Positions 29,964 to 44,389 of a DNA stretch of 45,642 bases are shown piece by piece. The stretch spans positions 1 to 45,642 of the forward strand of contig CAWBHS010000048.1 in NCBI GenBank assembly GCA_963788655.1, in the 5' to 3' direction. Source of the stretch: an uncultured Verrucomicrobiae bacterium (GTDB lineage Bacteria; Verrucomicrobiota; Verrucomicrobiia; Limisphaerales; JAFGQR01). How positions within the stretch are numbered: position 1 is the first letter of the stretch; each line of letters opens with the position of its first letter. The notes beneath the pieces are model-generated. The model was not told the DNA's origin, did not search any database, and saw nothing but the letters and a program-made list of their open reading frames with translations. The position numbers were made by a program, and so were the translations under genes.

Positions 29964-32900
29964 TTAGGTGGCCGTGGTTGAGGTTTCCACCGGACGTTCC
30001 AGTACCTGGCGTAGCGTTGCCAGCAACTGCTCGGTCGTGAACGGTTTGGGCAGAAACGCCTGAACGTTCGCGGTGGGATGGCGCGCTTCGGCTTCCTGGG
30101 CCGGCAGCCCGCTCATGGCGACCATCGGCAATTCCGGCGCCTGCCGGCGGATGGCCCGGATCAACGTCGCCCCGTCCATGATGGGCATCAACATGTCGGT
30201 GACCACCGCCTGGATGGCCTTCTGGTGGCGCATGTAAGTCATCAATCCGTCGGCGCCGTCCAGCGCCGGCAACACGCGGTAGCCGTGCTTTTCGAGCATC
30301 CGCTGCGCCACGTCGCGCACCGCCTCTTCGTCATCGACCAACAGCACCGTCTCGCCCTGGCCGCGCGGCAAATTGCGGGGGCGGATTTCGGTTTGGCCCG
30401 GGGCCTGGTTGGCCAGCGCGGGCAGGTACACGCGAAATTGCGTGCCGTAACCCAGCCGGCTTTGGATCTGGATGAAGCCCTCGTGGTTTTTGACAATGCC
30501 CAGGGCGGTGGACAGGCCCAAGCCGGTGCCCTGGCCGGGTTCCTTGGTGGTGAAGAACGGATCAAACACCTTGTCGAGGAGTTCCGGGGGAATGCCCAGG
30601 CCGGTATCCCCGACTTGCACGACGACGTGCGGGCCGGGGCGGAGTTCCGGGTGCAGGCGGGTGTAGGCTTCGTCCAGCACGAGGTTTTCCGCCGCCAGGG
30701 TGAGCGTGCCGCCGCGGGGCATGGCGTCGCGCGCGTTGACGCACAAGTTCAACAACACCTGATGGACTTGCGTGGGATCGGCGCGGATGGTCCACAGCTC
30801 ATCCGGGAATTGCGGTTGCAGCTTGATGTTCTTGGGAAACGTCTCCGCCATCACTTTCGCCATCTCCTTGAGCAACGGGCGCGGCGGGAGTTCGGTGCGT
30901 TGACCGGGCAGGCCGCGGCCGAAGGTGAGCAATTGCTTCACAATGTTCGCCCCCCGCTGCGCGCTGCCGGATAACAAATTCAACAACGATTCGTCGTCGG
31001 GCCCGGACGGCTGCTTCCGCAAGATATCCACCGCAATCATGATGGGCGAGAGAATGTTGTTGAGATCGTGCGCCACCCCGGTGGCCAGCGTGCCAATGCT
31101 CTCCATACGCTGGGCGCGAAGGAACTGGGTTTCCAGACGCTTCTTTTCGGTGATGTCCGAGTTGACGATGAGGATGGATTCCGGTTGTCCCTCGGCTCCG
31201 CGCACCAACACCCAACGGCTCTCGACAACTTGTGTCTTGCCGGGGGCCAGACAGCGCTCCAATTCCCCGGACCACTGGCCGCGCGCCAGCGTGGTTTCCC
31301 AGGCCTCGAGAATCCGTTCCAGGACTTCCGGGAAGAGAACGTCCTGCATCGCGCTCCCGCACAACTGACGGGCGGTTTGGCCGTGCATTCGTTCGGCGCT
31401 GCGATTGGCGTACTCGATGCGTTGCTCCATATCGAGCACCAGCACCGCATCCTGGGTCTGGTCCAGCAGCCCGGCCTGCCAACTCACTTTTTCTTCCGCC
31501 GCCTTCAAGCTGGTGATGTCTTCCAGGCACAACAGGATGCGGTGACGACCGTGCAGTTCGATCCGGGCCACCGACATGAGCAAGGTGAGCCGGCTGTCAC
31601 GTCCCCCCGCGACGCTGGGCTGCACGGCCAGCCGTTGGCACGGATCGCCCGTTGTCAGCGTTTTCAGCACCGCCGTCCGCATCGGACAACCGGCACACTC
31701 CGGGCCGTACCCGCACCCGCGCGGATCGTCATGGACGTGCAGGCAACCTATGAATTCGCCGCCCCGTTTGCCCTGCAATTCTGATTCCGGGCGGCCGGCG
31801 AATTGGATCGCGGCCTGGTTAACTTGCACCACACGCAGGTCTTCATCCAGCAGGCAGATCATGACGGGCGCGTGATTCAGCGTGGCGCGCAATTCCGCTT
31901 CGCGTTGCTGCAACGCCTCCTGGACCGCCTTGAGCGCGGTGATGTCGCGCGTCAGACCGCACAGGCCGGTGATCCGGCCTTGGGCGTCGCGCAGCGGCAC
32001 CTTCACGGTTAGAAAGCTGCGCGGTTGGCCCCCGACCGGACGGGTATAATCGCCTTGCACGGTTTCCCCTGCCAGCACCCGGACGTCCACCGCGGAAATC
32101 TGTTCCGCATCCCCGGCTTCCCACAACTCCGTATCCCCCGCGCCGAGCAACGCGGAGGCGGGACGGGCAAACAAGTGTTCCATGGCCGGATTCACATGGG
32201 TGTACCGGCCGTTCAGGTCCTTGATGAAAATGGCGTCCGGCGCGGCTTCAAAGATGGCCCGCAGACGTTCTTCGCTTGCTCTCAACGCACGTTCGGTCTG
32301 CCAGCGCTCGGTGATGTCCACCACGATGCCCCGGACCCCGCCCGGGGCATCGTCGAGCCAGATCGCGGTGGCATCGATCATCACCGGGAACGTCGTGCCG
32401 TCCTTGCGCTGGGCTGTGTATTCTTCGGGAGGAACGGTTTCCCCGCCGGCAATCCGACTGACGTTGGCCCGCGCACGCTCCCGCTGTGCCGGCACCACCA
32501 TGTCCCAAGCTTCCAGGCCCTTGGTAAAATCGTCGGGGTCGTAGCCAAACGTGACAAAGGCCTGCCGGTTGACGAACGTCAAGCGTCCTTCAAGATTCAT
32601 CTCGAAGACGGTTTGCGGCAGCCGCTCGGCCAACTCCCGGAAGCGTTGCTCATTGCGCAGGAGTTCTGCCTGGGCCTGCTTGCGCTCGGTCAGATCCCGG
32701 CAGACACTCAGGATCAACGTTTGCCCCTGGTGCTCGAAGCGCCGTACGTTTACCTCGACGGGCACAACCGTGCCATCACGCCGGCGTTGGGTGGACTCAA
32801 AGAGATGATGGCCCTGCCGGGAAACAACCTCCATGCGTTCCGCGATCATGGCGGATGCCGCGGGCGCATCAATATCGGCCACCGTCATCCCCAGCAATTC

Positions 32901-34181
32901 GTCCCGCGAATATTGCAGCCGTTCGCAGGCGGTCCGATTGACTTCGACGAACCGGCCTTTAATGGGGTCGAAGATAAAAATGGCGTCCATCGCGTTGTCG
33001 AACAGCGCCCGGAATTTCTCCTCGCTGGTGCGCAAGTCCCGTTCGGCTTGTTGACGCTCGGTGATATCGGAAACCACCGTCGCGAATTGGCCGGGCTTGG
33101 GCGAGAAGACCGCGATCTGGAAATGGCGCTTCAGGGACGGCACTTCCGTTTCGAATTGCACCGGCTCACCGGTGAGCGCCACGCGGCCGTAGGTTTCGAT
33201 AAACGCGGCCGCATCGAGGTCCGGCAGCGCCTCGGTGACGCATCGGCCCAGCAGTTGAGGGCGGGCCAGCCCGGTTTGCGTTTCAAAGGCGCGGTTGACT
33301 TCCAGGAAGCGATAATCCACCGGCTGGCCGGCGGCGTCGGTCACGATTTCGTGCAGGGCGAAACCATTCAAGGAGTGGTCGAACAAACCGCGGTACCGCG
33401 CCTCGCTTTGGCGAAGGCGGATTTCCGTGCGCTCCTGAGCCTGGATGCGGCGCCGCACGTACCGTCCCCCGCCCACCAAGCCCACCAAGCCGAGGACCCA
33501 AATCAGTCCGTGGTTCAATAACACCGCGCCCAACTGGGCGTTGGCGTCTGCCAGATAGGGCCGCATTGGCACCGACACACTGATGCCCCCGCGGATGTCG
33601 CCCAGCCGGTAACCTTGGTCCCCATGGCATTTCAAACAGTCGGATTCCACGCGCATGGGACGCATCAGACGCAAACAGGATTGGCCGTCGAGCGGCTCGA
33701 GGGAACTGACTTCCGTGGCGCCGGTTTCGAAGGCTCGCAGGGCATTTGTTTCCCAGGCATCCGCGGCATTTTCCGGCCGGATTGGCTTCAAGCTGGTGAT
33801 GTGATCCTGCACGCCTTTGGCCTGGCGGGCCATTTCCTGGACTTGCCGCGTCATGGAGGCCGGGTTGACCAGCGTGAGCTGCTGGCCCGAGGGAAGCGTC
33901 AGATCGCGTTGGGGCACATGGGCCAAATTGGGATTGGGCGGTGTCTGCGGTGTCACGGGCACATACACACCTCCATGCATGGCGACCCACCGGCGATAGA
34001 GCAGATCCTTCGCAAAACTCAACCGGGCCGCTTGCCGGGCCATTTCCTTGCCGTGGCGCCGCAGCCCCAGCCAATCGCACCCGGCGGAGGCGGCCACCAT
34101 CAACGTCCACCCCACGGCCAAAACCCACACGAGCTGGTTTAGCCGTGGCACTGACGATCGCATTTCAGGAAGTTGCTTCAT
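29964..34181 (-). CDS. Hybrid sensor histidine kinase (DUF3365-like heme-c sensor, six PAS, HisKA, HATPase, receiver)
   Basis: HGGVYVP...CLKCH...GDIRGGISV; six DITE-type PAS ends; AHDLNNIL, DPFFTTK, GTGLGL; LLVDDE...TDMLMP...PKP. Confidence 0.95.
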   Translation of the reverse strand: MKQLPEMRSSVPRLNQLVWVLAVGWTLMVAASAGCDWLGLRRHGKEMARQAARLSFAKDLLYRRWVAMHGGVYVPVTPQTPPNPNLAHVPQRDLTLPSGQQLTLVNPASMTRQVQEMARQAKGVQDHITSLKPIRPENAADAWETNALRAFETGATEVSSLEPLDGQSCLRLMRPMRVESDCLKCHGDQGYRLGDIRGGISVSVPMRPYLADANAQLGAVLLNHGLIWVLGLVGLVGGGRYVRRRIQAQERTEIRLRQSEARYRGLFDHSLNGFALHEIVTDAAGQPVDYRFLEVNRAFETQTGLARPQLLGRCVTEALPDLDAAAFIETYGRVALTGEPVQFETEVPSLKRHFQIAVFSPKPGQFATVVSDITERQQAERDLRTSEEKFRALFDNAMDAIFIFDPIKGRFVEVNRTACERLQYSRDELLGMTVADIDAPAASAMIAERMEVVSRQGHHLFESTQRRRDGTVVPVEVNVRRFEHQGQTLILSVCRDLTERKQAQAELLRNEQRFRELAERLPQTVFEMNLEGRLTFVNRQAFVTFGYDPDDFTKGLEAWDMVVPAQRERARANVSRIAGGETVPPEEYTAQRKDGTTFPVMIDATAIWLDDAPGGVRGIVVDITERWQTERALRASEERLRAIFEAAPDAIFIKDLNGRYTHVNPAMEHLFARPASALLGAGDTELWEAGDAEQISAVDVRVLAGETVQGDYTRPVGGQPRSFLTVKVPLRDAQGRITGLCGLTRDITALKAVQEALQQREAELRATLNHAPVMICLLDEDLRVVQVNQAAIQFAGRPESELQGKRGGEFIGCLHVHDDPRGCGYGPECAGCPMRTAVLKTLTTGDPCQRLAVQPSVAGGRDSRLTLLMSVARIELHGRHRILLCLEDITSLKAAEEKVSWQAGLLDQTQDAVLVLDMEQRIEYANRSAERMHGQTARQLCGSAMQDVLFPEVLERILEAWETTLARGQWSGELERCLAPGKTQVVESRWVLVRGAEGQPESILIVNSDITEKKRLETQFLRAQRMESIGTLATGVAHDLNNILSPIMIAVDILRKQPSGPDDESLLNLLSGSAQRGANIVKQLLTFGRGLPGQRTELPPRPLLKEMAKVMAETFPKNIKLQPQFPDELWTIRADPTQVHQVLLNLCVNARDAMPRGGTLTLAAENLVLDEAYTRLHPELRPGPHVVVQVGDTGLGIPPELLDKVFDPFFTTKEPGQGTGLGLSTALGIVKNHEGFIQIQSRLGYGTQFRVYLPALANQAPGQTEIRPRNLPRGQGETVLLVDDEEAVRDVAQRMLEKHGYRVLPALDGADGLMTYMRHQKAIQAVVTDMLMPIMDGATLIRAIRRQAPELPMVAMSGLPAQEAEARHPTANVQAFLPKPFTTEQLLATLRQVLERPVETSTTAT

Positions 34182-34547: not shown

Positions 34548-34741
34548 GCCGTGACTATTCAGTAGGACAGGCGTCCCGCCTGTCCCGAACGAGTGCAAAC
34601 CAACGACTTGTATCACGGCGCCGCGAGTATTTCTATGTCACCAAACGGTGAGGATGCCATAGGCTATTCGAGACAGGCGAGACGCCTGTCCTACCACGCC
34701 GAACTGCCTCATCGCCGCATCAGCCACTGAATTGATACGGC
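34548..34741. mobile_element. 194-bp MITE-like element, copy 3
   Basis: GCCGTGACTATTCA...TGAATTGATACGGC flanked by TAA/TAA, at the stop of the response regulator. Confidence 0.85.
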
Positions 34742-35118
34742 TAAGCGGCCTTTGCCGTTCGCAGCACTCGACGGATATCCATCAGCAATTGGCTCCGCAC
34801 CAACATCTTGCTGGTGAACGCATCCGCTCCCTGTGCGCGGGCTCGTTCCCATAGATCCTCTTGATAGCCGAAGCCGGTAAACACAATCACGGGCAGATCC
34901 GGCCGGGTGGCCTTGAGTTCGCCCAGCAAGCTCAAACCATCTTCCCCGCCAAGATCAACGTCGAGCACCGCCAGATCCACCGGGCCGGCGGCGACCGCTG
35001 CAAGCGCTTCCTGCCGGTTGTGCGCCGCCGTCACCCGGTAGCCATGCTCCTTCAGGAACAAGGCTACGGCGGTCTGAATTTCGTGGTCATCATCGACCAC
35101 CAGGATGTCGTGAGTCAT
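34741..35118 (-). CDS. Single-domain response regulator
   Basis: ILVVDDD, VLDVDL...DGL, VIVFTG, FTSK. Confidence 0.9.
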   Translation of the reverse strand: MTHDILVVDDDHEIQTAVALFLKEHGYRVTAAHNRQEALAAVAAGPVDLAVLDVDLGGEDGLSLLGELKATRPDLPVIVFTGFGYQEDLWERARAQGADAFTSKMLVRSQLLMDIRRVLRTAKAA

Positions 35119-35274: not shown

Positions 35275-36106
35275 TTAAAGGCCGGCGTCGGCGCCGTACG
35301 GCACCAACTCGGCCATACGCCAGTGCCCCGTCCCCATCCGTTGGCACGATCCCAGTGTGGCCATCCGTTCGGAAACCGCTCCGTACGTTGTCAATGCGGT
35401 TCCGCTTACTCCGACAATGCCACCCCTAAAGTCCAAACGGATCAACGATCGAAATCGGGTTTCCATCAAACGCAACGCAGAAGTTCAACCCGCCCGAGAA
35501 TCCCGCCGGCTCAAGATTCAGGAACTGGCACAGGTACGGGTTGTAGTAACTGCTCCGCATGCAAAGGAGGCCGTTGGCATCGGTCTGCACGCCGTAGCGT
35601 CCGTTGCATAGAAACGGAGGTTCGTGCCGCTCCGGCACGTCAGGCTGCCGTAGGCCGAGTATTCGGCGCGGTCGGTCACGTTGCCATTGGCGTCGTAGCC
35701 GTAGCGGATCACGTAGCCATCGGCGTTGGTGAAAGCGGTCACGCGGTCGGTACGCGTCAAAGCCCCAGGTGTTGGTCTGCGTCCCCTCGCTGACGGTGGT
35801 GAGGTTGTTGTTCGCGTCGTAGCGGTAGTACGTGGTGCCCACCCCATCGGTGCGGTTGGTCAGGCGGCTGCGGGCGTCGTAATAGAAATTGGCGGTGTTC
35901 GTGCTGGGTTCGATGACCGTCTGCAACCGGCCTCGATTGTTCCAGCCTTGTGAGGTGACCCGGCTCAGCGGCGTGGTGGTATTCGTCAGCCGATTGGCGG
36001 CGTCAAAGTGGAGAAACAGCCTCCGCTCTGGCGGATAGCCAAAGGCCGACACCGCCAGCAGCAGGAACAAAGCGAATTGAAGCCGGCGCTTCATGGGCTT
36101 ATCCAA
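35275..36106 (-). pseudogene. Degenerate Rhs remnant (leader, YD repeats, eroded core end)
   Basis: YD repeats split across frames. YNPYLCQFLNLEPAGFSGGLN...NPISIVDPFGL is followed directly by a stop. Confidence 0.8.
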
Positions 36107-36381: not shown

Positions 36382-36675
36382 TCATCCGAGGCGGACGACT
36401 TCGCCTGTTGCGATTTCCTTGCCTTCCCAAAGTCTCACCGGTTTTCCCGGTGACAGCTTCGACAGCACCAGATCGGGATTTAGGAACTTGACCGGCAACT
36501 CGTAGCTTTCGCCAAGCTGGAGCGTCTGAGCGTTGACGAGCAGCCGGCAGTCGAATGCTTCTCCCTCGATAAAGAGCGGACACCCGTAAGGCGTTTCGCC
36601 GATAACAATTGGGCCTTGCCGACCGCCTTCTGCCGTGGTCTTCAAGCGCACTTTGATAAACGCGTCTGGATTCAT
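36382..36675 (-). CDS. Putative immunity protein resembling EF-Tu domain III
   Basis: Directly after orphan toxin 3; EGGRQGP...GESYELPVKFLNP...EGKEIATGEV. Confidence 0.7.
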   Translation of the reverse strand: MNPDAFIKVRLKTTAEGGRQGPIVIGETPYGCPLFIEGEAFDCRLLVNAQTLQLGESYELPVKFLNPDLVLSKLSPGKPVRLWEGKEIATGEVVRLG

Positions 36676-36683
36676 ATTCGTGT

Positions 36684-37103
36684 TTATGGGCGGGGAATTG
36701 GCATTGTGGGGAGCACCTTTGGAGTGAGTCCAGGCAGGCGATTGTTCGGGATCACCCAAGCGGGAATGCCGCGGTCAACCGTTGCCGGTGTGAGACCTTC
36801 AAAGATGCTGTTTGGCACTCTGGTCTGGATGAGCGTGTAGGGAGGATCACCAAAGCCGCGCACCGCCTGTTTTGCGTACGAAGAAGCTGCCTCAGCCGAA
36901 GTCGTAAAATACTTTCCTTCCGCCGAACCGAGGTTTCTCAAAATGTTGTTTGCCTGAATGTCCGCTAGTTCTGCCGGTCCTACGGCGCGGTAGAGTGTTG
37001 TCTCTGCGGCAAGAGTGGAATGCCAAATTTCGGCATTTCCCTTCATCGCCGGGCCGCTCAGAAAAAGGAGCAGCGTCAGCAGGCTTACGATGATGTTCGC
37101 CAT
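36684..37103 (-). CDS. Orphan toxin 3 with hydrophobic leader; possible ADP-ribosyltransferase-like tip
   Basis: Leader MANIIVSLLTLLLFLSG...HSTLAAE, then LYRAVGPAELADI...EGKYFTTS. Confidence 0.65.
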   Translation of the reverse strand: MANIIVSLLTLLLFLSGPAMKGNAEIWHSTLAAETTLYRAVGPAELADIQANNILRNLGSAEGKYFTTSAEAASSYAKQAVRGFGDPPYTLIQTRVPNSIFEGLTPATVDRGIPAWVIPNNRLPGLTPKVLPTMPIPRP

Positions 37104-37465
37104 TATTTCACAAATTCGCGGTCGATGGTCTTTCCAGTATCGAGATCAAGCTTCAGCATCCAAGAACTCCAAGTCCATGCACGCAATCCGTCAGCCGTCA
37201 TTTCAAATTCGACGAACGCGTCGGGTTGATCGGAAAGTTCGGCTTTCCAGATCACATTTCCATCACGTCCAACGCAGAACAGGTTTTCAAAAACTTCCTG
37301 TTTGCTCGCCATTCTATCCAGCAAGATCAAACACCTGTCGGTATCAATTGGCAAAGCTGCGTCCACTTTCATTCCTTGAAAGCTGCCGTTCCAACTGACT
37401 GTGCCATTATCCGCTCGAAAGATGGCGAACTCGCGATTCGGAATCGAAAAAATTTCGGTAGGCAT
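37103..37465 (-). CDS. Putative immunity protein for orphan toxin 2
   Basis: Starts 3 bp after the toxin stop; NLFC...GNVIWKAE...DLDTGK...FVK. Confidence 0.75.
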   Translation of the reverse strand: MPTEIFSIPNREFAIFRADNGTVSWNGSFQGMKVDAALPIDTDRCLILLDRMASKQEVFENLFCVGRDGNVIWKAELSDQPDAFVEFEMTADGLRAWTWSSWMLKLDLDTGKTIDREFVK

Positions 37466-37468
37466 AAA

Positions 37469-38083
37469 TTAAGGGCGCAATGGAATACCTGGTCCAAAGT
37501 TCGCGTTCGGGATTTGTTCCAAGAGTTGAACTTGAACACCGCCGCCGGTGAGACCGTTAGCACCGGCTGCTGTTCCAATCTGATAGCGAGTCCCGCCCGG
37601 AACAAGAACCTCTGAGTAGAACTGCGCCGTGTTCGCTGAAGGTAGAGCAAGACTTTCGATGGCTGACGCCGCGGAGGTGGGACGGATTGGTGAGAGCCAC
37701 GGTCCTGCTTGTCGTGAGCCGCCACCCCAAACCCGATACATCGTCGTATCCGAAGCAGCCGTTACGCTTCGTATCTCGCCTGCCCAAGGCTGATACCCTG
37801 TGTATGCCGGAAGAAGTCTCGTCCCTGTTCTTTCTGCGGCAAAAAATTCCGCAAATTTGGAAAAGCTGACGCAATCCCCAGGCGTTCCTTTTTTCTTTTC
37901 GCCCGTGGTGGGCACAGAGGCGGGGTCATAGCCACCGGCGGATTCGCCGTTGCTGTAGTAGGCAACTATTGTTTGGTTTTCCGCGTCGTAAGCGAAGATG
38001 GAGGGCGGAGCGAAAGTTGTGGAGGCAAAACATGCCCACAAAAGCAGCACAAAGCGCAGTCGTAGCCAAAGCGCGTTCATCAT
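37469..38083 (-). CDS. Orphan toxin 2 with leader; TNT/Tne2-like NAD(P)+ glycohydrolase-type tip
   Basis: YRVWGG...GPWLS...LALP...VPGGT...GTAA...GGGVQ motif string after FFAAE. Confidence 0.7.
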   Translation of the reverse strand: MMNALWLRLRFVLLLWACFASTTFAPPSIFAYDAENQTIVAYYSNGESAGGYDPASVPTTGEKKKGTPGDCVSFSKFAEFFAAERTGTRLLPAYTGYQPWAGEIRSVTAASDTTMYRVWGGGSRQAGPWLSPIRPTSAASAIESLALPSANTAQFYSEVLVPGGTRYQIGTAAGANGLTGGGVQVQLLEQIPNANFGPGIPLRP

Positions 38084-38502
38084 AATGGAAGTGAATCGGC
38101 TCGGTCGCTTAACAGGCTCTGACCGGCCTGTTTCAACAACTCAACCAATCCATCGGTCATCTGTTCGAGAGAAGACTTACCAGCCTCGCTCGATCCGCGC
38201 GGTCTTCCCCGATAACCCGCATGGTTAACAAGGTGTGTGAAGATGTCTGACGAATATCCTCCTTCCCAATTCCGCTTAATCTGGCCGTCCCGAACCCTCA
38301 CAACCTGTCCGTCAACGCACTGATCGCGCACATCGAGACTGAAGATGAAACCGACATTATTGCCCAAGTAAACCACCGTGCCGCTCGTCGGAGTTGTCTC
38401 CTCCAGGCTCGGCACGCGGTGAAATCCCTTGCCCTCTAGGAAGCTGAATCGGTCCAGAGCCAACGTCCTAAATTGCTCGACTGTGATTTGTGAATTGCTC
38501 AT
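38080..38502 (-). CDS. Putative immunity protein for orphan toxin 1
   Basis: 140-aa ORF starting 14 bp after the toxin stop, with AAGCGGAG upstream. Confidence 0.7.
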   Translation of the reverse strand: MSNSQITVEQFRTLALDRFSFLEGKGFHRVPSLEETTPTSGTVVYLGNNVGFIFSLDVRDQCVDGQVVRVRDGQIKRNWEGGYSSDIFTHLVNHAGYRGRPRGSSEAGKSSLEQMTDGLVELLKQAGQSLLSDRADSLPL

Positions 38503-38516
38503 GGTTTAAGCTCCGC

Positions 38517-38957
38517 TTAAGGGTCAAAGCCCGGCACACCACCCTGATATTTTCCTGTGCGCTCGTAAATGCGCTGGTAGTTGTCGTAGTTGAGAAGCTG
38601 TTGACGTTCGCCCCCATAAACAGCACTGGGAGGACGTCCGAGCGCTGGGTCGATGCGATTCTGCAGTCGTCGGCCAAAGGCAGGGCCGATGTCGATGAAT
38701 TCTCGACCTTGTGCCTTCATCGTCGCAATGAACTGGTCGTTCAGAGGCTGTGACCACTGCCTGCCCGCCAACCAATCGTCAATTGTATGACCGCCGATGC
38801 TCCGAGAATACGCATTAACCCGCGTCATCTGCTCCCCAATGACAACGGGTGCGTTCTTTGCGGCAAGTGTGGAATGCCCGTCGTAGGCAAAGCCCGTCAA
38901 AAAGAGGAGCGTCGTAGCCGCGAACCACACCCACCGGCGGACGAAATTACAAGACAT
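38517..38957 (-). CDS. Orphan toxin 1 with leader; unassigned toxin-tip family
   Basis: Leader MSCNFVRRWVWFAATTLLFLTGFAYDGHSTLAAK, then VIGEQMTRV...FIDIGP...SAVYGGE. Confidence 0.65.
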   Translation of the reverse strand: MSCNFVRRWVWFAATTLLFLTGFAYDGHSTLAAKNAPVVIGEQMTRVNAYSRSIGGHTIDDWLAGRQWSQPLNDQFIATMKAQGREFIDIGPAFGRRLQNRIDPALGRPPSAVYGGERQQLLNYDNYQRIYERTGKYQGGVPGFDP

Positions 38958-39285
38958 GAATGTCATCGAGTTCAATCCTAAAGCCCTTTTCCCCAGCGAT
39001 GAGCGTGATCCCGATTGAAAGATCGGAACGTCCTTCCTCATGCGTCCAGAGCGGCATCGTAACCGACCACTGCCTGGGTTGCGCGTCTCGGACCTCAACA
39101 ATATCCATCAGTCCAAAAGCATCATCAGGTGGTAAGACCAATTTCCGGCCATAGTCACTGATGGCCTTGGCCATTTCGTGAGCGGAAAGGCGCTGCCTCC
39201 CCGTCAGCGTTTCCAGTTCGGCATACTTGCCTGCGACCAAATGCTCAATGACTTGGCGGACGGGCTGTTTTAGTCGTTCGTTCAT
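38947..39285 (-). CDS. Putative cognate immunity protein of the full-length Rhs
   Basis: 112-aa ORF starting 7 bp after the Rhs stop; LWTHEEGRSDLS...DDIHVL. Confidence 0.78.
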   Translation of the reverse strand: MNERLKQPVRQVIEHLVAGKYAELETLTGRQRLSAHEMAKAISDYGRKLVLPPDDAFGLMDIVEVRDAQPRQWSVTMPLWTHEEGRSDLSIGITLIAGEKGFRIELDDIHVL

Positions 39286-39292
39286 AGCAGAC

Positions 39293-42200
39293 TTAACGGT
39301 TGCCAGGAATGCGTGTTGGAGTTGATGGAGTCGCGCCAATGCTCCTGAAGTAGGCATCCGATTCAGCGATGATTTGGCGAGCTTGCGCCTCCGAGTAGCC
39401 GGATTGCCGAAGCGCCTTGTATCCGATTCGCATCTCGGCTGCGAGCGTTCCGCCACCGGCCTGACGCTGAACCTGAGTCGCAATGTAATGCGGAGTTCCC
39501 CCTGCTGTGGATGGTCCGGGAAGCTGAACACCCGGCGCAAGCTGCGTGTTGTAACCAGGCAAATCTCTCACAGCCGCATCTTGCACTACGTGATGGGCAT
39601 CTCTCAGACCGGCAGCCCGCAAATCGCCTACGGTTGACGTCAGTCGCGTCTCTGCGGCCGTCACCCGCTCCACGAGGTTGCGGTTACTGAGGCTGTTCTC
39701 GGGGCATCGGGTTGAAGGAGGTTTAAGGGGAAGCTCGAGCTGTTCAGCCCGGGGTGCCCGCAGTTCCGTCAGGCCAGGCGAACGTAATCCGCGCTGAAGT
39801 GATTTCTCCAGCATTTCAATCCGCTGCCGTCGGCTGAACATCTGCCTCGGCTCGGCAAAGCCCCGGGTTTCAAGCTGAATCTCAATTTGAACTGCCAAGG
39901 GATCGCGGGGTGGCGCGGGCTCAGCGTACTCGGCGACGCCTTGAAGGCCATAGGGATCAATTGCGTTGACCGGATTATTCTTGACCAGTGCATACAGATG
40001 GATGCCTCCGGCTTCGCCGAGTGGGTCTGGCGTCAACCAACGCTGCAAACTCGGATCGTAAAACCGCTGGCCATAACCGTAAACTCCAAGCAAGGAGAAA
40101 TATTCCTTGCTCGAAAAGCGATACGGATTGGCCGCCGCTTGTGGACCAGCGGCCATCAGCAGGTTGCCATACGGATCATAGTGATACCGCGCGACAATTC
40201 GTTGATGCTCGTTGAGCAGCGCCGTGATGTTCCCGCCTCGATCAGCGTGGTAGTAAAAGGTCTCTTGCCCGACCGCAGGTTCGGACACGGTTCGCGCCAA
40301 CAGCCCGCCGATGCCGCCGGCCCCGTCCAGAGTGCCGCTCAGGTCAACGCCGCGGGTGTAACTGACAACGCGCTGGGGCGTATTGGTGGAAATCCGGGGA
40401 TCAAAGTGGCGCTCCTGGAGCACCAATGATCCGTCATACACATACCGAACTTCGTTCGTCGGCTGCCAGTTAGGGCTGCTCCAACTGCATTCGCGCCGCA
40501 CGCGCAGTCGGTTCAGACCGTCATAGACCAATTCGCTGCGCCACTCATTGGACACCGTGACCGCCGTCAACTGATCGGCATCGTCGTATTCGAAAGTGCG
40601 CCGACCATCGCTGGTGAGATTGCCGTTGAGGTCATATTGGAAACCAACCGATTCCGGCAGGTAGGCACTGATTTCGTTGGTGGCGCGGTAACCGTCCTTC
40701 CAGTTCGCCTCGGTATGAAACGTGTTCCAGCCGCTGGTAAGAGTGAGCCCCTCCGCCGCATACGTGCCGTCAGCATAACTGACGGCGTTTGTTCCATTCA
40801 CCTTTACGCTGAGCGGCAGCCGACCGCGCAGGTGGAACCACCAACCGCTTGCGGTATAGGTGTTGGATCGCGTCACTGAACTTAACTGGTCCAGGTTGTT
40901 GTCGGGAACAAACGTCTGGCTAAACCCGTTCCGGACGCGGGTTACGAGGTTCCCCGCCTGGTCGTAGTCGTAGCTGATTTGCTCGTTCAACCGTGACACG
41001 CTGTTGGACTCGTAGCCGGTGGCGGTCTTCAGTTGCCCCAGCGCGTCATAGCCGTAATGAACGCAATTGCTGGCCCAAAAGGTTTGGTTGGTTGCTTCCC
41101 CAAAAAGGTTCACCCCGTAAGCGTGCTGGTTAAGAACCGAATCGTCGGAATTAAGAAGCACTGTGAGATTTAGCCGTGCCATCGAATCGAAGGCATTGGT
41201 GATAACGCCGCCATTGGGAAAGGACAGGCTCTTGCGTAATGGCCACCGGCTTGATTCGTAGGCGTAGCTAAAGGTTCCCGAGGAGGAATTCAGGTCTTTT
41301 AGGCGCCGCGCCGTATCAAAAATGTATTGGTTCGTCCAAGCGGAGCCGACCAATTGCTCCAGGTTTAGATTTGTCCGCACCTGGCTGGCATAGGCGTAGG
41401 TCACCGTGTCGCTGGCCCAGGGACCGTCTTCCGCCAGCAACTGGCCGACTTCGGTGTAGCTCAATTCGGTGGTGCCGACCGCATCAGCCAGACTGGTGAG
41501 ACGATTCACCTGGTCGTATGTCATGGCGATGTCTGCACTGGTCGCGTAGTCAATGTTGGTCAGGTTCCCCACGTCGTCATAATGGTAAGTCGTGAGGCCC
41601 TTGGCGGCGGTCCACCGGCTAATCAGGCGTCCATCGGCATCGTAGCCGTTGGTGAGAATCAGCGCGTTGGCCGCATTGGTCTTGCTGAGAACCTGGCCAT
41701 AAACATCATAGCCCCATTTTCTGACTTGGTTGCGTCCGTCCTGGAGGGCCACCAAGTCGCCCGCCGCGTTGTAGGTAAAGCGCACTTCTTCAAGGTTGGC
41801 GTTGGTTACCACCAACAGGCGGCGTGCTTCGTCATGGTCAAAGAGGGTGACCCGGCTCGATGTGCCCGCAGCTCCGTCCTGGGTGTAATTCGTGAGGCCG
41901 CGCGGCCCGTAGAAATAGTGTTCCACGCCACCGTCCGGCCAAGCCCGGCTCAGAATGCGGTCTAGCGAATCGTAAGCGTTGGTAACCGTTACTCCGGCGG
42001 CATCGGTGATGTTGGTGGGCCGGTCTTTACGGTCATAAATTAGGCCAAATACCTGGCCACCGGCGTTCCACGCGGAAGCGGGCAAACCCAGGTGGGTATA
42101 GTAATTGGTCACGCTGTAGCCGCCATTATCCCGAAGGTTTGTCAGCCATCCCAACCGGTTGTATGTCAGGTTTACAATGCGACCATCGGGATAGGTGATG

Positions 42201-44389
42201 TTCGTTCGGCGGGTTTGCAGATCGTAATCAAAAATTGTCGTTTTGTTCCGGGCATCAGTGACGGATTCCAGCGCGCCACAGTCGCAGTAGCCAAACGACG
42301 TGACGTTGGTGAGTGCGTTGGTTACCGTAAGAAGTTGCCGAACCGGACTGTATTCGAAACGCGTCCAGATACCCAGTCGGTCTTTTACCCCAACGACGTC
42401 CAGCCGATTATAGACACGCTCGATGTAGGATTGATCCGGAAAGGTGACGTTGGTGAGCCGTTGCAGCTTGTCCCAGGCGTAGGTGACGGTCAAATCGCGG
42501 GCATCGGTGGCGGTGTGGACCAAATCATTTGTGTACGTGAACGTGCGCGTGGCTTGGATTTGTTGGTCTTCGATTTCCTTCAAGCGCCCCACACTGGCGC
42601 CTTCCCAAGCTTGGTAGTAGGTCAACCACGTTGTTAGGCCGCTTGGCTTTTCAATACTGCCAAGCTGGTGGGTGTTTTGATCATAATTATACGTCCACAC
42701 CTCGCCTACAGCATTGGTGAACTTGGTCATTTGGTGGTGATCGTTGTAGCCGTAGCCCGCCAGAAATTCGCCACTGGGACCGTAATGGGTGACGAGATCA
42801 ACCAAGTTCGCCGCATAGACGAAATCATTGGTGCGCCGAAGACTGTTGTCGTAGGTTTCCACTAACAGGGTGACATTTCCGAGCGCGTTTCGCTGCTGCC
42901 AGGTAAAGCGTTGCTGCGCGCCCGGCTGCACCCGGATGGTCGCCGCCACCTGGGAATTGATGCCCTCGTAATCGTCCTGGTACTTTCCCGGATAATCGTA
43001 CCAGGTGAACTGACCGGTTTCCGCGCCGTCGGGGCTGGGGGAGCGCTCACAATTCAAGGTTGGACTGACGGTATTGTCCGGGGCGTGGGCCACGCGCAAC
43101 CATTGGCGCATTCGGCCTTTCTCAAAATCGGCGCTGCTAAACTCGGTTGGGGTGTTCGTGGACAAGGCCGCAAATTGCCGCTTATTCCAGTAAAAACTAT
43201 TTCGCCAGCGCATATCGTCGTCAGACAAGGTCCCAAGCGGCGAATACGTGGGCGTCAGCCCGTTGTAGTAGTGCGTCGGCAGGAAGTCGCTACTGTCATC
43301 CATGTACAGGTACAGTTGCGTCGCATTATCGGGCGTGGTGATTTGCAGCGAGCGATTGATGACATTTTGCCCGCCCAGGAAATCGGAGTTGCCGCCGGTC
43401 ACCTGGAAGCTCGTCACTCCATACGGCGTGGTCAGGTTGGTGATCGCACCCGCGTCATCGTAAACGAAACGGCTAAACAGTCCCTCCGGATCCACGATGT
43501 TGGTGAGGTATCCTGAAGCATCGTAATACAGGAAGTTGGTACGTCCGTAAGCGTCTTCGACACTCGTGATTTGCGAACTGAAATTGGTGTCCGCATAGCG
43601 AACATAATTGGTTCGGCCATCGACATCGATTACCCGGACAAGACGCGTGACTAAAACCACACCCTCGGTCTGCGACTCGTATTCAAAGCGGGTGCTGAAA
43701 CCCACCGGGTCAATTCTTTCCGAAAGGAAATACGTTTCCCCGTTACTCGTCAGCACGTGGTATTGATAAAGCTCTTTCCGGCCGTCAGCGTGATCGAGAG
43801 CGAAGCCCACGAGGTCGGGAGTGCTGTTGAAAACCGGCCGCAGCCACGTCTGGGCATACGGGTCGAGTTTGGCGCCGCCCTCAGCCTGCGAGCAGCAGTC
43901 CGCGTTGGTGTACCGTTTCACGCCTCCACCAGCCAGATAAAGGTCGGCCAGGAGGTAATTCACGCAATTGGTCGCCGCCGCTCCCGGAACACACTGGGCC
44001 GCTTGCAGGCCTTCAAAATAAATCCGTGACATCCACGAGCATTCCCACTGCGGCCCGACGTTGAAGACGCTGGGAGTGTTGTCGCGCTTATCACGCTGCG
44101 TGTAACTCAAATAACGCACTGGTGCTCCCTTGCTGGGCTGATAGCTTAGCGGCTCATCTTCCATCCAGAGTGAAATGAACGGCTCGCTGACCCACCACCG
44201 CGCCATACCCTCACAATCCTCCGAGGCTTCCAGCCCGTTATATCCGGCCAGTCCCGGGGCATGTTCATCATCTTCGTCCTTGATTTTGTTATCGCCACCG
44301 GCCCAGCACCAGCTCGCTATGACACCACACGCCAGTAGCAACGTTGCCCATCGCTTAACGATTTCGAAATTGTGAATCAAACCTTTCAT
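39293..44389 (-). CDS. Rhs/YD-repeat polymorphic toxin with signal-peptide-like N-terminus and probable HNH-type nuclease tip
   Basis: Many YD repeats; core RFYDPSLQRWLTPDP...NPVNAIDPYGL; tip DAHHVVQDAA...PHYIATQVQR. Confidence 0.93.
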   Translation of the reverse strand: MKGLIHNFEIVKRWATLLLACGVIASWCWAGGDNKIKDEDDEHAPGLAGYNGLEASEDCEGMARWWVSEPFISLWMEDEPLSYQPSKGAPVRYLSYTQRDKRDNTPSVFNVGPQWECSWMSRIYFEGLQAAQCVPGAAATNCVNYLLADLYLAGGGVKRYTNADCCSQAEGGAKLDPYAQTWLRPVFNSTPDLVGFALDHADGRKELYQYHVLTSNGETYFLSERIDPVGFSTRFEYESQTEGVVLVTRLVRVIDVDGRTNYVRYADTNFSSQITSVEDAYGRTNFLYYDASGYLTNIVDPEGLFSRFVYDDAGAITNLTTPYGVTSFQVTGGNSDFLGGQNVINRSLQITTPDNATQLYLYMDDSSDFLPTHYYNGLTPTYSPLGTLSDDDMRWRNSFYWNKRQFAALSTNTPTEFSSADFEKGRMRQWLRVAHAPDNTVSPTLNCERSPSPDGAETGQFTWYDYPGKYQDDYEGINSQVAATIRVQPGAQQRFTWQQRNALGNVTLLVETYDNSLRRTNDFVYAANLVDLVTHYGPSGEFLAGYGYNDHHQMTKFTNAVGEVWTYNYDQNTHQLGSIEKPSGLTTWLTYYQAWEGASVGRLKEIEDQQIQATRTFTYTNDLVHTATDARDLTVTYAWDKLQRLTNVTFPDQSYIERVYNRLDVVGVKDRLGIWTRFEYSPVRQLLTVTNALTNVTSFGYCDCGALESVTDARNKTTIFDYDLQTRRTNITYPDGRIVNLTYNRLGWLTNLRDNGGYSVTNYYTHLGLPASAWNAGGQVFGLIYDRKDRPTNITDAAGVTVTNAYDSLDRILSRAWPDGGVEHYFYGPRGLTNYTQDGAAGTSSRVTLFDHDEARRLLVVTNANLEEVRFTYNAAGDLVALQDGRNQVRKWGYDVYGQVLSKTNAANALILTNGYDADGRLISRWTAAKGLTTYHYDDVGNLTNIDYATSADIAMTYDQVNRLTSLADAVGTTELSYTEVGQLLAEDGPWASDTVTYAYASQVRTNLNLEQLVGSAWTNQYIFDTARRLKDLNSSSGTFSYAYESSRWPLRKSLSFPNGGVITNAFDSMARLNLTVLLNSDDSVLNQHAYGVNLFGEATNQTFWASNCVHYGYDALGQLKTATGYESNSVSRLNEQISYDYDQAGNLVTRVRNGFSQTFVPDNNLDQLSSVTRSNTYTASGWWFHLRGRLPLSVKVNGTNAVSYADGTYAAEGLTLTSGWNTFHTEANWKDGYRATNEISAYLPESVGFQYDLNGNLTSDGRRTFEYDDADQLTAVTVSNEWRSELVYDGLNRLRVRRECSWSSPNWQPTNEVRYVYDGSLVLQERHFDPRISTNTPQRVVSYTRGVDLSGTLDGAGGIGGLLARTVSEPAVGQETFYYHADRGGNITALLNEHQRIVARYHYDPYGNLLMAAGPQAAANPYRFSSKEYFSLLGVYGYGQRFYDPSLQRWLTPDPLGEAGGIHLYALVKNNPVNAIDPYGLQGVAEYAEPAPPRDPLAVQIEIQLETRGFAEPRQMFSRRQRIEMLEKSLQRGLRSPGLTELRAPRAEQLELPLKPPSTRCPENSLSNRNLVERVTAAETRLTSTVGDLRAAGLRDAHHVVQDAAVRDLPGYNTQLAPGVQLPGPSTAGGTPHYIATQVQRQAGGGTLAAEMRIGYKALRQSGYSEAQARQIIAESDAYFRSIGATPSTPTRIPGNR

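Follow-up and report, generated by a model that had tools for sequence, protein, structure and literature searches.

The contig CAWBHS010000048.1 (assembly GCA_963788655.1, an uncultured Verrucomicrobiae bacterium) was analysed over a window of 45,642 nucleotides, and the subject here is a pair of small genes on its minus strand. The first encodes a 139-aa protein whose main domain is predicted to adopt an ADP-ribosyltransferase (ART) fold, and the second a 97-aa protein that is a free-standing homologue of domain III (D3) of elongation factor Tu (EF-Tu). Together they probably form a toxin–immunity cassette within an RHS-associated array, and both open reading frames (ORFs) lie where an initial annotation, made from the DNA letters, had placed them (Table 1). 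The toxin ATG shares bases with the stop of the ORF before it, in the sequence TAATG. A mechanical ORF list extends the immunity ORF to a TTG at 36759, which would give 125 aa, and we have taken the ATG at 36675 as the start because relatives begin at the same methionine in the close-family alignment described below (A1).

Table 1. The toxin–immunity cassette and the features around it, with positions in the 45,642-nucleotide window.
Feature	Position	Strand	Size or content	Basis
Toxin gene	36684..37103	minus	139 aa + stop	ORF and translation
N-terminal leader of toxin ORF	37005..37103	minus	residues 1-33	read from translation
ART-fold toxin domain	36687..37004	minus	residues 34-139 (106 aa)	AlphaFold2 model, Foldseek
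Spacer, toxin stop codon TAA to immunity ATG	36676..36683	minus	8 nt	sequence
Immunity gene, stand-alone EF-Tu domain III homologue	36382..36675	minus	97 aa + stop	
Overlap of preceding stop and toxin ATG	37101-37105		TAATG	
Small same-strand cassette	37469-38083 / 37103-37465	minus	204 aa / 120 aa	ORF list
Small same-strand cassette	38517-39101 / 38080-38502	minus		ORF list
DUF7668 protein	38947-39540	minus		Pfam E=4e-24
Main RHS protein, array head	39293..44389	minus	1698 aa	Pfam RHS_repeat E=5.6e-45
Mini-RHS	35426-36106	minus	226 aa	
Junction repeat, two copies	37001-37045 and 38855-38899		45 nt, 73% identity	
Signal-peptide-like starts, small toxin-like ORFs	37005-37103, 37880-38083, 38790-38963	minus		
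Signal-peptide-like start, mini-RHS	35927-36106	minus		
Signal-peptide-like start, main RHS	44210-44389	minus		
Adjoining ORF	29964-34181	minus	1405 aa	
Adjoining ORF	34741-35118	minus	125 aa	

The initial annotation had likened the 97-aa protein to D3 through three motifs, and these are present as EGGRQGP (residues 16–22), G..V.FLNP (residues 55–67) and EGKEIATGEV (residues 84–93). Clustering at 90% identity gave 117 relatives, almost all of about 97 aa, while a library clustered at 50% identity held 805 cluster representatives at E≤0.001, 406 of these at E≤1e-10. We worked with a close-family alignment of 105 sequences (A1) and a wider alignment of 131 mutually divergent sequences (A4). The AlphaFold2 model built from the 105 sequences (pLDDT 94.3) is a barrel of beta strands and has a single short helix. 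When this model was compared with the Protein Data Bank (PDB) using Foldseek there were 89 matches at E≤0.001, the best with an E of 4e-5, and ranks 1–50 were all EF-Tu chains or entries containing EF-Tu, with TMq values of 0.75–0.81.

Profile searches led to the same domain. The four top PDB matches of the A1 profile are mitochondrial EF-Tu, aligned end to end over residues 299–383 (E=0.074–0.6), and the A4 profile finds EF-Tu D3 as its best match at E=1.5e-5 over nearly the whole length. EF-Tu accounts for all seven A4 matches at E≤0.001 and for 55 of the 60 listed rows, always in domain III; in HMMER the match falls on residues 296–391 of 1d2e and 306–392 of the E. coli chains. The link between the family and D3 became significant because the wider, divergent profile was used. 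The Pfam model GTP_EFTU_D3 (PF03143) is matched by 36 of the 131 A4 members (best E 1.9e-6) and by two of the 105 A1 members, and in the ESM Atlas two neighboring clusters, whose proteins are about 100 aa long, have PF03143 on 13% and 24% of their members. The three motif pairs of immunity protein and EF-Tu correspond to aligned columns in the PDB alignments of both A1 and A4. At the family level the resemblance to D3 exceeds chance, and the proposed homology is borne out by fold and by family profile; the 97-aa sequence alone would not be called D3.

Six residues are invariant in the close immunity family (G18, R19, F41, C43, R44 and L82), and in the divergent wider family G17, G18 and R19 still reach 90% conservation or more, so that the best-conserved feature is the EF-Tu signature loop, GGR. 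There is no G domain or domain II before the D3 barrel, the ORF being 97 aa and the listed relatives 53–167 aa and 70–273 aa, and the few longer family members that were inspected carry unrelated N-termini. Among the stand-alone D3 proteins, P0307 (273 aa) and P0340 (197 aa) have long hydrophobic N-terminal extensions and P0333 (205 aa) has an additional C-terminal domain, so that some family members may be membrane-anchored or fused.

The toxin ORF begins with a leader that, by eye, consists of a hydrophobic signal-peptide-like stretch followed by a linker ending in HSTLAA, and leaders of the same type are found in the relatives P0120, P0121, P0134, P0144 and P0145. A search at E≤0.01 gave 134 relatives of the toxin. 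Residues of the domain are numbered here over 110 positions, residue 1 being residue 30 of the ORF, and conservation was calculated from 93 sequences. The AlphaFold2 model of the domain has a pLDDT of 91.6, and the ART-like "YR start" that had been pointed out in the initial annotation is real, as TTLYRAV forms strand 1 of the predicted fold. All rows listed by Foldseek for this model are, as far as their names are recognised, members of the ART superfamily. The neighbors comprise Tpt1, which is the best match, KptA, TreTu (TMq 0.51–0.55), CC0527, diphtheria toxin, ParT, CNFy and RhsP2.

Y36, Y47, A51 and D81 are invariant in the toxin family. The candidate catalytic residues are R10, E33-G34-K35-Y36, Y47 and D81; conserved R10 is on strand 1, K35-Y36 on strand 2 and D81 before strand 5, a pattern that matches no canonical ART clade (R-S-E, H-Y-E or H-H-h). 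The only repeated hint from Pfam is to ART-PolyVal, which 11 of the 93 members match weakly (best E 0.037). When the toxin profiles were searched against the PDB by sequence they returned only chance matches (EsxS, E=0.33; a calcium uniporter, E=1.7), and ESM Atlas feature scores of 0.90 to a Tox-ART-HYD1 cluster and 0.88 to a TreTu cluster are taken as leads only. In relatives the toxin domain follows RHS ends, PT-HINT or annotations as "filamentous hemagglutinin". Among 19 ORFs scanned it is C-terminal on RHS-repeat proteins (L012, L018, L019, L024, L031, L034 and L037) and it is also carried by one haemagglutinin-repeat protein (L005) and by FG-GAP/TcdB-type proteins (L007 and L018). On the evidence of its model the toxin is an ART-fold domain of a new family with no Pfam ART family match, and its catalytic activity is a prediction.

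To see how regularly the two genes occur together we scanned with the immunity profile, taking one genome per species, and counted from the immunity gene to the toxin. This gave 44 loci, which span Acidobacteriota, Verrucomicrobiota, Chlamydiota, Spirochaetota, Bacteroidota, Cyanobacteria, Actinomycetes, Planctomycetota and many Proteobacteria. The co-occurrence that the initial annotation had anticipated is found: a near-full-length toxin domain ends just upstream of the immunity gene in 23 of the 44 loci, and only a 3' remnant of it in three others (L002, L003 and L032). The gaps between the matched ends of toxin and immunity protein run from -1 to 57 nt. Distances among toxins and among immunity proteins are correlated over 24 pairs (Mantel r=0.59, a value reached in 0 of 2000 permutations), which shows inheritance as a unit and does not show co-evolution. 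In P0193 (217 aa) a toxin-profile match at the N-terminus is followed by an immunity-profile match at residues 120–213; this reads like a frameshifted read-through of adjacent genes and no true fusion.

If the immunity protein is descended from D3, the toxin might be expected to engage D3 itself, as the initial annotation had supposed. We therefore predicted the complex of the toxin domain, with its own alignment, and full-length E. coli EF-Tu (Swiss-Prot sequence), with NAD and GTP included. EF-Tu was left uncut, therefore no domain was chosen in advance. The ipSAE was 0.72 in all three runs, with 0.00 for the best of three controls, and this mark is attained by 116 of 157 solved complexes and by two of 215 mismatched pairs; the runs share at least 90% of their contacts and the pLDDT of the partners is at least 87. 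The predicted interface lies almost wholly within D3. Confident EF-Tu contacts are residues 248, 288, 303, 319–324, 326–330, 337–341, 362, 364–365 and 379–382 (E. coli numbering). Of these, 319–324 is the RHTPFF of the EGGRHTPFF loop and 379–382 the EGGR of the C-terminal strand, and these contact loops carry two of the motifs common to the immunity protein and EF-Tu. We take the region comprising 319–321, 330, 339 and 380 to be the face of D3 that binds the T-stem of tRNA. We know of no solved structure with an ART-fold protein bound to EF-Tu D3 from which the prediction model could have memorised this pose.

On the toxin side the predicted contacts are residues 30–33, 36, 47, 50–51, 54–55, 76, 78–82, 86 and 88. 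They include all four of the family-invariant residues (hypergeometric P=5e-4), and nine of the 18 are at positions that are at least 90% conserved (P=0.028). The EF-Tu contacts were also carried onto the immunity protein through the HMMER alignments, which gave 22 equivalent positions. Four of the six invariant immunity residues (R19, F41, C43 and R44) are at such positions (P=0.023), and with the wider-profile alignment 10 of the 22 positions are at least 90% conserved (P=0.037). The model thus seats EF-Tu D3 in the conserved cleft of the toxin, and it supports, rather than demonstrates, binding of the toxin to D3.

These results suggest a mechanism. The toxin would dock its conserved NAD-binding and active-site cleft on domain III of the EF-Tu of a target cell, over a face made of the GGRHTPFF hairpin (319–324), residues 326–330, 337–341 and 362–365, and the C-terminal EGGR (379–382). 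It would then most likely ADP-ribosylate a residue on the tRNA-binding face of D3, and translation would stop because the modified EF-Tu could no longer carry aminoacyl-tRNA. The immunity protein would have arisen by exaptation, as a D3 copy that stands alone and has retained the signature loops. By binding in the same pose as D3 it would occupy the substrate-docking cleft of the toxin, as a tight pseudosubstrate or decoy, and so shield the producer. We lean slightly towards this reading, in which an ART toxin attacks EF-Tu D3 and an exapted D3 pseudosubstrate blocks it. The more specific proposal, that D3 decoy immunity is joined to an undescribed ART family that ADP-ribosylates EF-Tu on its tRNA-binding D3 face, within the GGRHT or Thr382 loop or next to one of them, is in our estimate a little short of an even prospect. 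The interpretation offered in the initial annotation, immunity by mimicry of the toxin's target or cofactor, is supported overall.

The same model bears on whether EF-Tu is a substrate at all. EF-Tu could instead be a cofactor, a platform or an entry aid, so that binding to D3 activates the toxin or lets it reach aminoacyl-tRNA, the ribosome or the cytoplasm, with the immunity protein competing for the cofactor site on the toxin. The modelled EF-Tu touches Y36, Y47, A51 and D81, the presumed active site, and for this reason a substrate fits better than an allosteric partner; the footprint on what we take to be the T-stem-binding face would, moreover, exclude aminoacyl-tRNA instead of presenting it. 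There are several precedents for such a role among polymorphic toxins: the CdiA-CT from NC101 binds EF-Tu domain 2 (PMC5737660, partial text), the CdiA-CT from EC869 requires EF-Tu, EF-Ts and GTP (PMC9071432, partial text), SRLase1 requires EF-Tu to cut the sarcin-ricin loop (bioRxiv 10.64898/2026.09.18.752725, partial text) and Serratia Rhs2CT requires EF-Tu for intoxication (bioRxiv 10.1101/2025.10.28.685041, partial text). We consider a role of this kind quite unlikely for the present toxin and prefer EF-Tu as its substrate.

A number of observations weigh against a D3-directed toxin blocked by a D3 decoy. The 97-aa protein is merely 14–22% identical to EF-Tu in the Foldseek rows of ranks 1–50, and as a single sequence it has no match in Pfam or NCBIfam and none to an EF-Tu entry in the PDB, where its sole sequence match is a chance one to an RNA polymerase subunit (E=0.065). 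When A1 was aligned with E. coli EF-Tu using hhalign only 17 columns around EGGR were aligned, at a probability of 3.9%, and a local hmmsearch gave the same outcome, the EGGR stretch alone. The Foldseek matches of the toxin are weak, with none at E≤0.001, a best E of 3.3e-3 and TMq values of 0.37–0.62, and none of the 93 family members matches Pfam TreTu_C (PF24691, at E≤10) or Tox-ART-HYD1, which rules out membership of either family. The likeness of the toxin to TreTu does not itself point to D3, because TreTu modifies D21 and its immunity protein TriTu has no D3 barrel. As for the complex, the calibration of the ipSAE on solved complexes and mismatched pairs is only rough here because the toxin had its own alignment and NAD and GTP were present; the score is one of model confidence, and E. 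coli EF-Tu is a stand-in. With the first alignment nine of the 22 contact-equivalent positions were conserved, which is not significant (P=0.10), and merely five of the 22 immunity residues are identical to those of E. coli EF-Tu.

This low identity is also what might speak for ordinary occlusion, in which the D3 barrel is a scaffold that caps the active site, the substrate is RNA, tRNA or another protein, and EF-Tu ancestry is incidental. The best structural match of the toxin is the RNA 2'-phosphotransferase Tpt1 and the RNA-modifying ART RhsP2 is also listed, so that close neighbors of the toxin (Tpt1/KptA and RhsP2) act on RNA, a further point against EF-Tu as the target. Most characterised ART immunity proteins cap the active site, TriTu and the modelled RhsFI being examples (PMC13617354, partial text). 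Simple capping would leave aside that the controlled prediction seats EF-Tu D3 in the conserved cleft (0.72 versus 0.00), that the motif best conserved among the immunity proteins is the EF-Tu signature GGR and that most of their invariant residues, four of six, map to the predicted EF-Tu footprint. We regard occlusion by an incidental D3 scaffold as unlikely and retain the decoy reading.

The distribution of the genes also weighs against the decoy reading. In 17 of the 44 loci the immunity gene has no toxin domain upstream, and in one more (L028) the upstream region is lost at a contig end. The copies that lack a toxin are set among rows of small ORFs on the same strand; the orphan immunity gene in L010 adjoins Imm32, other orphans are next to ParE/YoeB genes, and in L001, L011, L020 and L022 the immunity gene is downstream of large toxin-like ORFs with other small ORFs between. 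A second family of toxin partner was sought by scanning 23 ORFs upstream in the 17 toxin-less loci, and none is recurrent there: these ORFs comprise ParE/YoeB toxin–antitoxin genes, Imm32, Uma2, a nucleotidyltransferase and DUF4258, or match nothing.

A further point against it is that within the window the toxin, which starts with a signal-like leader, is encoded by an ORF of its own that is not fused to the RHS gene. With no RHS or CdiA carrier fused to the toxin, with toxin remnants upstream in three loci and with 17 of 44 immunity genes orphaned, the pair might be a decaying orphan cassette that has no present function in this genome. That both ORFs are intact and keep all the family-invariant residues argues otherwise, as do the tight coupling of the genes to their neighbors through the 8-nt spacer and the TAATG overlap and the recurrence of the leader-plus-toxin architecture in relatives (for example L036). 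Decay is in our view very improbable, and we continue to treat the pair as a working cassette.

The array to which the cassette belongs runs along the minus strand from the 1698-aa RHS protein through the DUF7668 protein to three pairs of small, tightly packed ORFs, of which the toxin–immunity pair is the last. The C-terminus of the main RHS protein has a weak match to Tox-SHH (HNH/EndoVII; Pfam E=0.014), and the DUF7668 protein is presumably its immunity protein. The true start of the latter is probably internal, because the mechanical ORFs of the RHS and DUF7668 proteins overlap by about 250 nt. In the pair next to the cassette the 204-aa ORF has a weak match, under the cut-off, to Tuberculosis necrotizing toxin (TNT, an NAD+ glycohydrolase; E=0.043) and the 120-aa ORF that follows it matches no Pfam family; the two are probably another toxin–immunity pair.

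The array closes with a 226-aa "mini-RHS" that combines a signal-like start with a few YD repeats and an RHS-associated core. It stops exactly at DPFGL, no toxin domain follows, and it resembles an rhs gene that has been truncated or has suffered an internal deletion. Hydrophobic, signal-peptide-like starts are present on all three small toxin-like ORFs, on the mini-RHS and on the main RHS protein. A 45-nt repeat is found in two of the cassettes and encodes a linker, "...HSTLAA", right before the toxin domain. The linker "AYDGHSTLAAEN" also precedes this toxin domain in the relative P0123, and the repeat could be a shared pre-toxin junction for processing or cassette swapping. Comparison of the RHS gene with the cassettes for direct repeats revealed nothing beyond echoes of the YD repeats and this one junction repeat. 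Next to the array are two ORFs that by eye look like a multi-PAS hybrid histidine kinase (1405 aa) and a single-domain response regulator (125 aa).

The usual immunity protein of a polymorphic toxin is an unrelated binder, which acts by capping the active site. If the decoy reading is true, the present protein would represent a different principle, immunity by target mimicry, in which the antidote is recognisably homologous to one domain of the protein that the toxin attacks. This would be of practical use, because the ancestry of an antidote would then predict both the target and the docking surface of an uncharacterised toxin. It would also reveal a third covalent way to disable EF-Tu, beside TreTu (D21 in domain I) and Doc (Thr382 in domain III). 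A large family, the 805 clusters of "hypothetical" proteins of about 100 aa that are a stand-alone D3, would gain a function, and the wider free D3 family may hold decoys against other EF-Tu-directed toxins. A full-text search, with subscription journals and bioRxiv supplements excluded, found no published description of an EF-Tu-like immunity protein, and the 300,000 characters of text available from the polymorphic-toxin census of Zhang et al. (2012) contain neither "EF-Tu" nor "elongation factor".

The nearest characterised system is TreTu/TriTu, the C-terminal toxin of the main Rhs protein of Salmonella Typhimurium with its immunity protein, for which structures have been solved of the toxin alone and with TriTu (PDB 7ZHL and 7ZHM). 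Both toxins are Rhs-type ART-fold domains of about 110 aa with an arginine on strand 1 and a glutamate six residues later, the spacing R10...E16 here being that of R6...E12 in TreTu. The nearest neighbors of TreTu are an RNA 2'-phosphotransferase, CC0527 and CNF, and its site is unorthodox, comprising R6, E12, S25, H31, F41 and W68 (PMC9825190, partial text); Tpt1, CC0527 and CNF are neighbors common to both toxins. EF-Tu is the proven substrate of TreTu, by which it is ADP-ribosylated, whereas here it is a predicted partner. The two also differ in the site, since TreTu modifies D21 in the P-loop of domain I and is thought to be anchored on helix D, while the present toxin is predicted to engage domain III. 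In TriTu two helices accompany a flat sheet of five strands, the immunity protein here is a D3 barrel, and this difference of fold rules out TriTu as a model for the 97-aa protein. Another ART toxin, TreThr, was considered with its immunity protein RhsFI as a possible case of D3-like immunity and was rejected, as neutralisation is modelled through the C-terminal helix of the immunity protein (PMC13617354, partial text). 

By target site the nearest system is Doc/Phd, a type II toxin–antitoxin system of phage P1, in which Doc inactivates EF-Tu at a loop of D3 and Phd is not known to be an EF-Tu homologue. Doc is a Fic-fold kinase, in contrast to the ART fold of the present toxin. It phosphorylates Thr382 on the D3 loop, and its binding site overlaps that of tRNA (PMC7180214, partial text); the footprint predicted here takes in 379–382 and adjoins Thr382.

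Other polymorphic toxins, from contact-dependent growth inhibition (CDI) and type VI secretion (T6SS) systems, resemble this one in binding EF-Tu. CdiA-CT NC101, CdiA-CT EC869, SRLase1 and Serratia Rhs2CT differ from it in being nucleases for which EF-Tu serves as cofactor or entry aid, and CdiA-CT NC101 differs further in binding EF-Tu domain 2 only (PMC5737660, partial text). CdiI NC101 was rejected as a D3-like immunity protein, as this four-helix protein joins EF-Tu in a ternary complex and does not mimic it. The terms "domain 3", "domain III" and "mimic" do not occur in the paper on SRLase1 and SRLi1.

Tox-ART-HYD1 (PF15633; Zhang et al. 2012) has a signature of H, [RK], [FY] and [DE] (PMC3482391, partial text), and K35-Y36 and D81 of the present toxin resemble the rest of this signature. 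They part at strand 1, where there is an arginine here and a histidine in Tox-ART-HYD1, and in the Pfam match, which is missing here. The immunity partner of HYD1 is Imm-My6CBD (PMC3482391, partial text), which is no D3 barrel. For the immunity protein itself the closest known relation is EF-Tu domain III (PF03143), with which it shares the fold, the EGGR loop and the C-terminal EG..G.V strand, and from which it differs in being a stand-alone protein of about 100 aa with invariant residues of its own, F41, C43 and R44.

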